A stretch of 53,190 nt of DNA, the filler included, from Ionaspis alba (Eukaryota): assembly GCA_964255285.1 (NCBI GenBank). It is 2 parts of 2 records of this genome, joined end to end, with 100 filler letters (N's around TTAATTAATTAA, not from the genome) between each part and the next. Parts side by side here need not be neighbours in the genome. Positions count along the whole stretch, not along the records: positions 1 to 26,640 come from CAXUUL010000144.1; 1 more part is not named here. One strand, 5' to 3'. The notes under the pieces were generated by a model. That model searched no databases, had not been told where the DNA came from, and worked only from the letters and a program-made list of their open reading frames with translations. The translations under genes were made by a program, and so were the position numbers. Numbering within the stretch: position 1 is the stretch's first letter; each line of letters begins with the position of its first letter. Below, one piece after another: positions 12,564-19,572 of the stretch.

Positions 12564-12643
12564 TGCTTCCATTCGGAGTCGAACCGAAGACCTCGGCATT
12601 ACTTTTTACTAGTGCCGCGCTCTACCAACTGAGCTATAGAAGC
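12564..12643 (-). tRNA. tRNA-Thr(AGT) with a 7-nt intron
   Basis: GCTTCTA-TA-GCTC-AGTTGGTA-GAGC-G-CGGCA-CTAGTA[AAAAGTA]A-TGCCG-AGGTC-TTCGG-TTCGACT-CCGAA-TGGAAGC-A. All stems pair; A and B boxes intact. Confidence 0.95.
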
Positions 12644-16298: not shown

Positions 16299-17025
16299 GA
16301 CTGAAAGCACAGCAAAGAGTGACAGTAACCCAGGTCGATGAGGAATGGTAAACTCGTCAATGAATGATGTTCGGTGAAGCTGCACTGGACCTGGGCAGCT
16401 TGACGAAAGGAATGTAAAAGTTGGAGTATCAAGAAGTAAAAAATTAAGGAGAACACATTTCAAACTGATCCAAATGGGAGGCGAATGTATCTCTTGACAT
16501 TGTGGAGGCTCGCCATATGAACCTGTCGACAAGTGTCGCTTATGAAGAGGTTAGAGGTGGTGATATTGGGATACTTTTAACCCAGGTGACTGGAAAATGA
16601 CACAACGACCACTTTCAACGATTCTATCTCATCCCTACTCCTCTTGTCTTTGTGTAGACCTGAGGATGATGTAAGCCTGTTCCTGCTGATCTCTGGCTTT
16701 TTATGAGAAGAAAGAGGGATTTATCACGGAAGGTGCAAAGCGTCAAAAAGGCGGCGTCTGGGGTGGAGCTAGTCAACTAGTCTGCTGTGCGCGCCCCTGG
16801 TAGCGTGCCAAGCCCTGTGAGGCTGTAAGGCTCTTTGACGACGATCTCTAATTTCATGACTAGCTGCCTAAGGATTCATTATTCGGGCTTGCCTTCGCTC
16901 TTGAATACCTTTGTTCTGTAGTGAATAATCAACATTTTCGGCCCCTACATGACCAGCTGCTCACTTGCTATATCATCCTTCAAGAGAGCCAATCCATCTA
17001 CAAGACTCCGCATCCATACAATCCA

Positions 17026-18085
17026 ATGATTCGCAGCCGTGGAGGTTTCGTTGGAGGGCCTTCGAGAGCAAGTCCACAGACATTGTGTCAGAAGTGCTTG
17101 AAACGAGATAAGTGATTCATCAAACGTTCGAGGTGGCTTACTGACCTTATACCACGACACTACAGCTACGAATGCAAGTCAACCGCTCAGGAAAGACCTT
17201 ATACCTCTCGGCCCTCGCGGACACAACAGTTAGCAAATCCCAAGCTTGTTCCGAAGCTTACTAGCGATGTCCCAAACGACCTGCTACGAAAGTGTGCACC
17301 ACTCTTTCTCAACGGGCTGCTGTTATGCTAACAGGACTAGAAATGGGATCGCCGATGAGCAATTAGCAATAAAGGAAGCGGAAAGAGGTCGTAAACGTGC
17401 TGCGGAGGAGGACGGCTTTCGTTCAAGGCCACGCAAGCGTTCTAGATCTGCGTCGTCTTACTCTTCCACTTCCGTTTCTACCATTTCAACCAACAACTCT
17501 CGTCCAGCCTCTCCCAAACGTTCCAAGCTCGATGGCTCGAGAGCATACACATTATCGCAGCCTCAGAGTCTAGCTAGGTCTTCACACACTAAAAGCCTAC
17601 GAAAAAGAAGGAGAGATTCCTCATCGTCTGATCGTTCTTATTCGACGACTGACTCATCCTACGATCGAAGAAGACCGAAGGAGAAAGAAAATGACCGAAA
17701 TACTCGGCGACGAAGATCGTCAGTGAGCCCGGAGTATAGAGGAAGGGAACGTGATCAAGACGACAGGAGAAGCTATCGCTCAGTTAGGAGCCGTAGCAAC
17801 AGTATGGATAGAAGCAAGGTAGCACGCCATCGTACCTCCATGACCCCAGATACCCGGAACAACCACGACCGGAGCAATGGCCGACCTCAGGAAAGACCGC
17901 CTCTGCGCACCAGCGGAAGAAGGTACACCAACGACGATGACAGGTATGGTAGCAGTTACAGGGACGAGGGTCATGATAACGGGAATGAGACGCCAGCGAA
18001 GCATCCTCCGCCGCGGAAGGAGAGAAGTTTGAGCCCATTCAGCAAGCGTCTGGCGCTCACTCAGGCAATGAATATGGGTAGATGA
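17026..18085 (+). CDS. CCHC zinc-knuckle protein with RS-rich tail (ZCCHC10-like)
   Basis: ATG 17026; exons 17026-17107, 17156-17291, 17341-18085. LCQKCLKRGHYSYECKSTAQERPYTSRPSRTQQL; C-terminus RSLSPFSKRLALTQAMN. Confidence 0.85.
17108..17155 (+). other. Non-canonical AT-AC intron with U2-type signals
   Basis: Donor ATAAGT, branch TACTGAC 17139-17145, acceptor CAC. Removal restores CX2CX4HX4C; retention gives an in-frame TGA. Confidence 0.8.
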
Positions 18086-18646
18086 GGATTTGGAATGTCA
18101 GATGTTCGGAGCACGGGAGCCGGGAAAGATATGAATAAAATGATCGGAATACCCACTCTCCTCGCAGCAGGAGTTATGTCATATGCTCTTAAGCTTCTCA
18201 ATGATTAGTCTCCATTTCAAAATGATCGAAAATAAAGTCAAATGCCATCCAGATTGAAACTCAACCGCTCAAACCACCGCTAACTATAACAAAATAGCGT
18301 CAGGCCTACCACATATCCTGCCCTCTAGGCTGTGTACGCGCCACTACTTCGAGTGTCGTCATGGGCGTTGAGAGACCTCAATGTAGTGGAGAATCGTTAT
18401 AACCGTCACGGGCAACGGGGTTGTAGCGCGGTAGCAGCTTGAGACTCCTTGTCGACGTTCAACACAAAGGCGATTCGCGATTAGTTAACTAGCTAACCAA
18501 GAGTAGCAAGTCGGAATCGTCGAGCGGAAGGTACTGGGTTTTTCAGACGAGCAAAAGCATTACAATGTTGCCTGTGCTACAGCAATAAAGACGCTGCAGG
18601 CCTGCATCATCTCCACTCTCCACCTCCCATCACATCCTCGCTGTCT

Positions 18647-19201
18647 CTATGATCTAGGCTTCTCCTTCTTCTCCTTCCACAGCGCTGACAGACCGACACC
18701 TGAGACCTTCACAACTTTAAATCGCACACCAGGAATATCACCCTTGGCCTTGCCTTTTCGCCCGAAACCAGATAGTAGAACCTCGTCGTTCTCGTCCACA
18801 AAATTGAGACAACCGTCGTTTGGAACTGTAGACCATATCCGTTAGCAAAGCCTTGATAACATCGCAACGTCCACCTTGTGGTCTGCCAATCCTTCCTTCG
18901 CCTCCTCAACTCCCTTTGCTGACTCGGAGAGCACGAACATACCGAAAGCAGTAACCTTTTTCCCGTTCTTGATCAACTGCACTCTGACACACTTTCGGAT
19001 AGCACTGTTAGGCTGCTTGGCCTCAACTCCGACCTTTTCCAGCACTATGCCCTTGGCGTGTGATGAGCCACCGAATGGTGATGATTTATAGGCTGTTCCG
19101 AGAAGACGCTTCTTGTAGGAGAGATCAGCCCAGCGGCCTTCGCGACGATGGTTCCGGAGTTTGCGGGCGGCGTTGAGACCGCGGGGCTTGCCTTTACCCA
19201 T
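18647..19201 (-). CDS. RPS23: 40S ribosomal protein S23 (uS12)
   Basis: [15 protein letters not shown]...[12 protein letters not shown]...[16 protein letters not shown]...KEKKEKPRS. Coding intron 18826-18942; probable 5'UTR intron 19207-19294. Confidence 0.98.
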
Positions 19202-19572
19202 GATTGCTGGGGGATATTATCAGCCGGGGCCTTAAGAGGTAATACAGCTCGATAGTGGTTTTCACGATGTGATCTATCCGCTGGAGAAACCTACCGATTG
19301 ATTTGTGGTCGCGTTGTTGGGATTATTGGTGCTTTCGTCGTCGATGAAATTCGAGCTTCAAAGTTGTGGGTAAGGCTGCCCTTAGCACGGTCCGTCTCGG
19401 CGGTGGGTTTTTCCGATGTACTTCAATAATGTGTTTCTTGTGCTAGCAATTTCTGAGCGTAAATGAATCGTTGGCAGGAATGATAATGTCCCGTTATGGT
19501 CAGGAAATAACCAAGATGGTTGCAAGAGTCGCGAACGAGCCCAATCTACCGTAATTCTTCCAATCGCTCAAA

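Follow-up and report, generated by a model that had tools for sequence, protein, structure and literature searches.

An AT-AC intron with U2-type signals in the zinc knuckle of a ZCCHC10-like gene of Ionaspis alba, and its conservation in Pezizomycotina

The window analyzed here is a stretch of 53,190 nucleotides (nt) from the genome of Ionaspis alba (assembly GCA_964255285.1). Positions 17026-18085 of its plus strand contain a ZCCHC10-like zinc-knuckle gene with three exons and two introns. The first of these introns starts with AT and ends with AC, and it splits the zinc knuckle of the encoded protein. Inspection of the window confirmed that the sequence around 17108-17155 is present exactly as the initial annotation had described it. 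The gene is organized as follows:

17026-17107, plus strand: exon 1, with the ATG at 17026, 27 codons (MIRSRGGFVGGPSRASPQTLCQKCLKR) and the first G of a Gly codon
17106-17113, plus strand: 5' splice site AG/ATAAGT, U2-type consensus with A instead of G at +1
17108-17155, plus strand: AT-AC intron, 48 nt, phase 1, within the Gly codon preceding the zinc-binding His
17141-17145, plus strand: branch-site motif CTGAC, predicted branch A at 17144, 11 nt upstream of the last intron base
17153-17155, plus strand: 3' splice site CAC, YAC replacing YAG
17156-17291, plus strand: exon 2, completing the Gly codon with two bases, followed by HYSYECKSTAQERPYTSRPSRTQQLANPKLVPKLTSDVPNDLLR and by bases 1 and 2 of a Lys codon
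17292-17340, plus strand: intron 2, an ordinary GT-AG intron of 49 nt (GTGTGC...GCTAAC...TAG)
17341-18085, plus strand: exon 3, an Arg/Ser-rich tail ending in ...ERSLSPFSKRLALTQAMNMGR, with the stop codon TGA at 18083-18085
17112-17165, plus strand: rival cryptic GT-AG path (GTGATT...CAG), in frame, yielding CQKCLKRDNYEC without the His

Exon 1 ends at 17107 with ...TGC TTG AAA CGA G, and the intron opens at 17108 with ATAAGTGA. The predicted branch A lies within TTACTGAC (17138-17145), CCAC ends at 17155, and exon 2 opens from 17156 with GA CAC TAC AGC TAC GAA TGC. The exons were joined by their coordinates in a script and the four possible products were compared. Removal of the AT-AC intron (17108-17155) gives 963 nt, in frame, encoding 320 amino acids (aa), and it is only with this junction that a complete CX2CX4HX4C knuckle (C-QK-C-LKRG-H-YSYE-C) is formed. 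Removal of the GT-AG path is also in frame (318 aa) and loses the His, removal from AT to AG (17108-17165) shifts the frame to a stop after 49 aa, and retention of the intron runs into TGA at 17113-17115 after 29 aa. The initial annotation had predicted each of these outcomes, namely a perfect knuckle, deletion of the zinc-binding His, a frameshift and a stop at TGA, respectively, and the joined exons reproduce them, with the Pfam fit given below as further support for the knuckle. Scored against a profile built from eight orthologues, the AT-AC product reaches 136.7 bits and the GT-AG product 115.3, whereas retention leaves 28.0 bits and removal from AT to AG leaves 26.8.

The predicted protein consists of a single CCHC knuckle, a conserved ...ERPYxSRPSRTQQLxNPKL... 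segment and a long Arg/Ser-rich tail. Exon 2 matches the Pfam family zf-CCHC_3 (PF13917) with 45.9 bits (cutoff 27; E 5.1e-12) over positions 15-41, starting from the His. Exon 1 covers positions 2-13 of the same profile with 14.4 bits, which is below the cutoff when taken alone. The gap in the profile at the junction is exactly one residue, the Gly of the split codon G/GA. The earlier designation as an RS-rich, ZCCHC10-like protein is thus backed by the Arg/Ser-rich tail together with a PF13917 match above cutoff; several orthologues from Aspergillus bear the source name ‘zinc finger CCHC-type containing 10’, and ZCCHC10 is a member of PF13917. The N-termini of the orthologues read MIR[QP]RGPFS..., and the junction of intron 2 yields ...DLLRK/NGIADEQLA, comparable to ...LLRKKG[VI]ADEQLA in the orthologues. 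The tail evolves fast and is closed by a C-terminus that is conserved in all orthologues (ERSLSPFSKRLALTQAMN; window positions 17980-18082), over which no Pfam family was found. Among the matches listed, the named proteins closest to the tail come from lichen-forming Lecanoromycetes (Icmadophila, 56% identity), in line with a probable origin of the window in a fungus of this kind. An open reading frame (ORF) call from the window (P0121, 272 aa) is 100% identical over exon 3 and does not contain the knuckle. A search for a solved structure of the family returned none, only generic retroviral knuckles with E-values of 0.005 or worse, and an atlas query with a homologue led to no clusters beyond those of the family itself in Ascomycota and a single one in Basidiomycota.

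The combined motif AG/ATRNGT...CTRAY-N6-9-YAC has a single match on both strands of the window, which is the intron at 17108-17155; in 200 block shuffles the mean was 0.125. No RNA run was listed among public runs for 16980-18130. The only run found is DNA-like, and its single contig, with a word depth of 133.8, is identical to the window over these positions and has no joints. Since this run may be the window's own source, the contig does not count as independent evidence.

Related loci were collected by scanning metagenome contigs, which gave 473 candidate stretches. A relative is encoded by 417 of them, and the best 80 were kept for all locus counts. In 62 of the 80 loci, an intron of 46-61 nt lies in the same Gly codon and in the same phase. 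All 62 introns start with AT; 59 end with AC, three end with AA and none is of GT-AG type. Another 17 loci are intronless at the Gly codon, and one (L045) has no exon 1 within reach. Together with the window, the 62 loci provide 63 introns with 40 distinct sequences, which form the basis of the signal counts below. Alignment of these orthologous loci for ATRNGT...YAC, a check that had been proposed earlier, recovers ATRNGT in 37 of the 40 distinct introns and conserved YAC-type ends. Judging by these alignments, the AT-AC ends are evidently due neither to chance nor to sequence error. The claim of a natural AT-AC intron is thereby strongly supported by comparative DNA and protein data, with U2-dependent splicing as the probable route of its removal.

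The three AT-AA introns (L044, L057 and L069) occupy the same position, represent at least two lineages, and have GGC as the Gly codon. Correspondingly, proteins of the AT-AA group (P0031, P0083, P0301, P0378 and P0382) have a Ser rather than an Arg before the His in read-through or truncated models. One further read-through model close to this group, P0086, has a Gly before the His (...NANYSLG/HYSYEC), which would imply either an AT-start intron ending in G (AT-AG) or an error.

Intron loss follows two patterns. The AT-AC intron alone is lost and intron 2 kept in L016, L019 and L021. Both introns are absent from L046, L054, L070, L071, L075, L078 and L079, which lie on contigs of 20-227 kb, and also from L060, L065, L067, L068, L072, L022 and L050. 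These losses are apparently independent events. No poly(A) was seen at the ends of the intronless loci L022, L050 and L060. The intronless loci encode ...K[KR]GHYSYEC directly and thus confirm the expected spliced product. By source name, the intron-bearing genomes belong to Lecanoromycetes, Eurotiomycetes, Leotiomycetes, Sordariomycetes, Dothideomycetes, Candelariomycetes and Xylobotryomycetes. This breadth shows that the AT-AC intron is older than the divergence of at least seven Pezizomycotina classes and that it has kept its odd ends from before they separated.

At the 5' site of the 40 distinct introns, +1 is A in 40, +2 is T in 40, +3 is A in 35 and G in 5, +5 is G in 40 and +6 is T in 37. 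The donor hexamers are ATATGT (16), ATAAGT (11), ATGAGT (5), ATAGGT (4), ATAGGA (2), ATACGT (1) and ATAAGA (1), which fit the fungal U2-type consensus GTRNGT except for the A at +1. At the 3' site, 39 introns have a pyrimidine at -3, all 40 have A at -2, and the last base (-1) is C in all but the two that end in A. A CTRAY branch motif is present in 38 of the 40. Information is confined to the splice signals and the branch motif, the interior of the intron being unconstrained. Neither the U12 donor ATATCC nor the U12 branch sequence TCCTTRA occurs in any of the 40. In its ends, its donor and its lack of U12 motifs, the intron belongs to the U2-type AT-AC class (AT-AC II).

Exon position -2, a synonymous third base in the last Lys/Arg codon, gives an additional view on recognition. 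An A occupies this position in 34 of 35 distinct contexts with the intron but in only 7 of 12 without it. The two adjacent Lys codons, taken as control, have AAA:AAG ratios of 20:14 and 21:14. The -2 A is thus constrained only when the intron is present, which supports recognition by U1. The 40 distinct introns and this control agree with the proposal that ATAAGT is a donor of the major-spliceosome type and not a U12 donor. The accompanying statement that Pezizomycotina lack the minor spliceosome is in line with pan-eukaryotic surveys which, in the excerpts consulted, report no minor snRNAs (small nuclear RNAs) and no convincing minor introns in Ascomycota (PMC10639083, PMC11347168).

The distance between branch and 3' site is also narrowly set. 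Among the 38 distinct introns with CTRAY, the predicted branch A lies 12 nt from the first exon base in 27, 11 nt in seven, 13 nt in three and 8 nt in one. In the neighboring GT-AG intron 2 of the same loci, the distance covers a range of 10-17 nt, and 20 of 36 fall within 11-13 nt; 38 distinct sequences of this intron were analyzed, ten loci being dropped because the exon-3 start motif was not found, and the choice of donor was heuristic. A non-AG 3' site may need to be chosen by its distance from the branch. U12-type introns have a similar optimum for the branch-to-3' distance. The length of intron 2 ranges from 48 to 146 nt across loci. In L080 it takes a GC-AG form (GCAAGT...TAG), whereas the remaining 37 distinct sequences have GT-AG ends.

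Public protein models carry a further imprint of the intron. Exon 2 as a query retrieved 628 relatives, and the best 120 were listed and classified. In this set, 57 models have the contiguous ...CLK[KR]G/HYSYEC and one is without the His. Another 33 read through the intron, all beginning with Asp and ending with Arg (31), Ser (1) or Gly (1), and 29 are truncated or frame-shifted, with Arg (28) or Ser (1) before the His. A larger set of 308 proteins with the exon-2 motif, which adds 105 cluster representatives, exon-3 relatives and relatives of P0290, gives the same picture. Contiguous Gly-His is found in 151 models. In-frame read-through occurs in 55, all of which begin with Asp (encoded by G/AT or G/AC) and end with Arg (53), Ser (1) or Gly (1). 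In 79 truncated or shifted models, the residue before the His is Arg (74), Ser (4) or Gly (1; P0315, a partial and effectively contiguous model). Twelve models take the rival GT-AG path and 11 lack the His in another way. Where an Arg precedes the His (C/GN, or A/GR), the intron must end in C, or in A when the Gly codon has a purine at its third position. A GT-AG intron in a G/GN codon would read Gly...Gly, and no model does.

About half of the public models (157/308) are thus not contiguous at the junction, being truncated, read through or spliced along the GT-AG path, which bears out the expectation that standard predictors would mis-annotate this gene. Many models from lichen fungi begin downstream of the knuckle. 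The initial annotation had also named orthologues without the CCHC His as an observation that would speak against the intron; what we found is contiguous Gly-His in 151 of 308 models and GHYSYEC in the intronless loci. Histoplasma capsulatum is represented by two models, one of which (P0009) is contiguous (...CLKRG/HYSYEC), while the other (P0013) starts within the intron (MTSVDRTTR/HYSYEC), so at least one annotation has removed exactly this intron. The closest pairs of contiguous and intron-bearing proteins are P0090 and P0056 (91.7%) and the two Histoplasma models (87.2%), and these pairs are suggestive of splicing.

On this evidence, we conclude with high confidence that 17108-17155 is a genuine spliceosomal AT-AC intron that is very probably removed by the major (U2-type) spliceosome, most likely constitutively. 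U1 and then U6 would recognize AG/AUAAGU as a 5' site that is normal except at +1, and U2 would base-pair at the CUGAC branch motif. With A at +1, the first step of catalysis would go ahead, and the second step would take the YAC located about 11 nt past the branch A. In this second step, the pair formed by the first A and the last C would substitute for the usual non-Watson-Crick pair of two Gs. Splicing would then restore the Gly-His of the CX2CX4HX4C knuckle. Ordinary recognition by U1, U2 and U6 is most likely given the type of signals, the control at exon position -2 and the surveys of Ascomycota. The odd ends have probably been retained because changing one end alone would block splicing. 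The sequence, reading frame, Pfam fit, conservation, signal type and synonymous-site constraint are shown by the data presented here, and we infer that the intron is spliced, that U1, U2 and U6 act on it, and where its branch point lies.

Several points weigh against this conclusion. The loci are related to each other, so locus counts do not equal independent events. There is no same-species pair of cDNA and genomic sequence among the 80 loci, and the closest match of an intronless locus to one with the intron has an exon-2 identity of 0.80. The contiguous models in the databases may stem from exon chaining by homology and are no proof of a transcript. The branch point is predicted from the motif only, and the absence of U11, U12, U4atac and U6atac is taken from the literature on the phylum and not from this genome. 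Finally, an in-frame GT-AG alternative is available in the window and in 32 of the 40 distinct loci, and some use of it may occur.

An extension of this conclusion, put forward in the initial annotation as a splice-fidelity sensor or autoregulatory switch, is compatible with it and adds a function. It would regard the AT-AC intron as a regulatory device, in which an inefficient second step ties the output of the gene to the state of the spliceosome. The knuckle-dead GT-AG form and the retained form would serve as alternative outputs, possibly with feedback of the protein on its own gene. The legend to Figure 5 of PMC3923134 places the spectra of human ZCCHC10 solely in the catalytic C complex of the spliceosome, and the extract of PMC10048706 treats ZCCHC10 as spliceosome-associated. 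The feedback idea is attractive since the gene of a spliceosome protein acting at the stage of the second step would itself depend on an intron limited at that step. The name given by the sources to the Aspergillus orthologues points in the same direction, as do the ends kept in 62 of 62 intron-bearing loci though some lineages lost the intron, the tight branch-to-3' distance (37 of 38 at 11-13 nt) relative to that of intron 2, and the presence of the in-frame GT-AG path in most distinct loci. However, that path takes its GT from donor positions +5 and +6 and its AG from the Tyr-Ser codons TAY AGY, so it needs no selection. As these signals come free with the donor ATNNGT and the TAY AGY codons, the presence of the path is no evidence of a regulated isoform. 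The path is moreover missing in 8 of the 40 distinct loci, and the 17 intronless loci, several of them on long contigs, indicate that the intron is dispensable in some lineages. Retention of the AT-AC ends is equally explained by the need for two simultaneous changes, and human ZCCHC10 is a putative orthologue, related to the fungal protein by the shared Pfam family. We therefore consider a regulatory role tentative and rather unlikely.

A more far-reaching scenario, which we regard as doubtful, combines this function with a history. A former U12-type AT-AC intron would have been captured by the major spliceosome when the ancestors of these fungi lost the minor one, and would have been maintained from then on as a feedback sensor. 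Its ends would be frozen since both must change together. The message could be completed only by way of a difficult second step at a non-AG 3' site fixed 11 nt from the branch, in a gene whose product is related to a protein seen solely in the catalytic C complex of the human spliceosome. Outgroups were sought to date the intron or assess a U12 origin; the relatives listed in the protein and cluster-representative searches were all Pezizomycotina-like, the divergent P0290 being from Venturia. A literature search on human ZCCHC10 as a minor-intron gene found nothing relevant. ZCCHC10 is absent from one supplement of PMC11347168 that lists ZCCHC8 and MAPK1, a table of responsive introns only and hence a weak indication.

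It is very improbable that the real splice in the window is instead the GT-AG pair 17112-17165 with a His-less protein as its product. This path has canonical ends, is in frame and has the predicted branch A at 21 nt from its CAG. It is also used by the public models of Icmadophila (CLKRDIYEC), Sticta (CLKRDNFEC), Squamulea, Arachnomyces, Penicilliopsis, Diplocarpon and Emmonsia. The Emmonsia crescens model (CLKRDNYEC) has the same junction as the rival product in the window, and so does P0225 (CLKRDNYEC); P0123 (CLKRDIYEC) takes this path as well. Such models are, however, the expected output of a predictor that only allows GT-AG introns. The path removes the conserved Gly-His-Tyr-Ser and scores 21 bits lower. 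Amino-acid conservation runs up to G/AT and resumes at AC/G in all relatives, including the 17 intronless loci. The donor GTGATT has no G at +5, a base that is invariant in the AT register, and the path is absent from eight of the 40 distinct loci.

Equally hard to sustain is a U12-type reading, with a cryptic or divergent minor spliceosome removing the AT-AC intron. The AT-AC ends, the phase 1 position and the short, fixed branch-to-3' distance of 11-13 nt would suit it. The complete lack of ATATCC and TCCTTRA argues against it, as does the exon preference for A at -2 and G at -1, which together with RNGT at +3 to +6 fits U1 and U6. No minor snRNAs are reported for Ascomycota in the two surveys, as far as their excerpts go, and no snRNA gene was detected with Rfam in the window, which covers 53 kb only.

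An assembly or sequencing error (a true G at both 17108 and 17155) or a dead gene, for which only the rarity of AT-AC introns in fungal annotations speaks (excerpt of PMC7072748), is extremely improbable given the same A and the same C (or A) in all 62 intron-bearing loci, three exons that are all open and conserved, and an identical contig with a word depth of 133.8, possibly the source of the window. We also considered A-to-I editing of the first A and rejected it, as it could not convert the terminal C to G.

U2-type AT-AC II introns have been described in animals, with 15 cases in human, six in mouse and three in Drosophila, e.g., in SCN4A/SCN5A and TAF2; they make up about 0.003-0.008% of introns and their ends are conserved between orthologues (in the excerpts of PMC1557818). 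The fungal intron resembles them in its AT-AC ends, in an otherwise ordinary U2-type 5' site, and in the conservation of the ends across orthologues. It differs in that its lineage is reported to be without a minor spliceosome, in its length of 46-61 nt with CTRAY about 11 nt from the 3' end, in its spread over seven classes, and in its AT-AA variants, all known here from sequence. The same source mentions that AT-AC II introns were hypothesized in xylanase genes of filamentous fungi (PMC1557818, in part), which are likewise presumed to be U2-type AT-AC introns in filamentous fungi, but in a different gene family.

A second comparison is with mutant introns of yeast and human, in which a change of the first base from G to A is rescued by a change of the last base from G to C (Parker and Siliciano, 1993; Chanfreau, 1994; Scadden and Smith, 1995; all cited in the part of PMC1557818 consulted). 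The yeast rescue, which the initial annotation had mentioned, is thus supported. These mutants have the same pair of first A and last C on a U2-type background, which provides a mechanistic reason why both ends must change together. They are engineered and less efficient, in contrast to the fungal intron, which is natural and has long been kept. The fungal intron resembles U12-type AT-AC introns in its end dinucleotides, in a phase other than zero and in a branch-to-3' distance that is both short and fixed. Unlike these, it has neither a ATATCCTT nor a GTATCCTT donor. It also has CTRAY instead of a TCCTTRAC branch (0/40), although a distance of 11-13 nt would fit the 10-20 nt range, and it shows the exon AG preference at -2/-1 that is typical of U1 sites, in a host phylum reported to be without minor snRNAs.

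We found no earlier description of the zinc-knuckle AT-AC intron in open-access papers and preprints, subscription journals being outside the scope of the search. The class of U2-type AT-AC introns is already known, and the intron of the ZCCHC10-like fungal gene is a new and unusually deeply conserved member of it. Four aspects are new: how deeply the intron is conserved in a phylum that has only one spliceosome, the constancy of the branch-to-3' distance, the existence of natural AT-AA variants and the extent of the mis-annotation. Animal genomes contain no more than a few handfuls of the very rare U2-type AT-AC introns, and fungal examples have scarcely been documented. The intron offers a natural substrate, in organisms with one spliceosome, for studying the matching of first and last base in the second step, as well as how a non-AG 3' site is picked by its distance from the branch, and the AT-AA variants constitute a natural allelic series. 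It also calls for a concrete correction of the 157 affected public models, including those that lose the zinc-binding His. A connection that can be tested also emerges, as this odd intron sits in a gene with a human relative among the C-complex proteins of the spliceosome. In addition, it is a clean marker of intron loss, given that some lineages lost the AT-AC intron alone and others lost both.

Two further features were noted in the window. An open frame lies tail to tail with the zinc-knuckle gene at a distance of about 750 nt and looks like a putative exon for ribosomal protein S23/uS12, and a tRNA gene is the sole Rfam match:

18842-19216, minus strand: open frame
12564-12643, minus strand: tRNA gene (Rfam RF00005, 58.7 bits)

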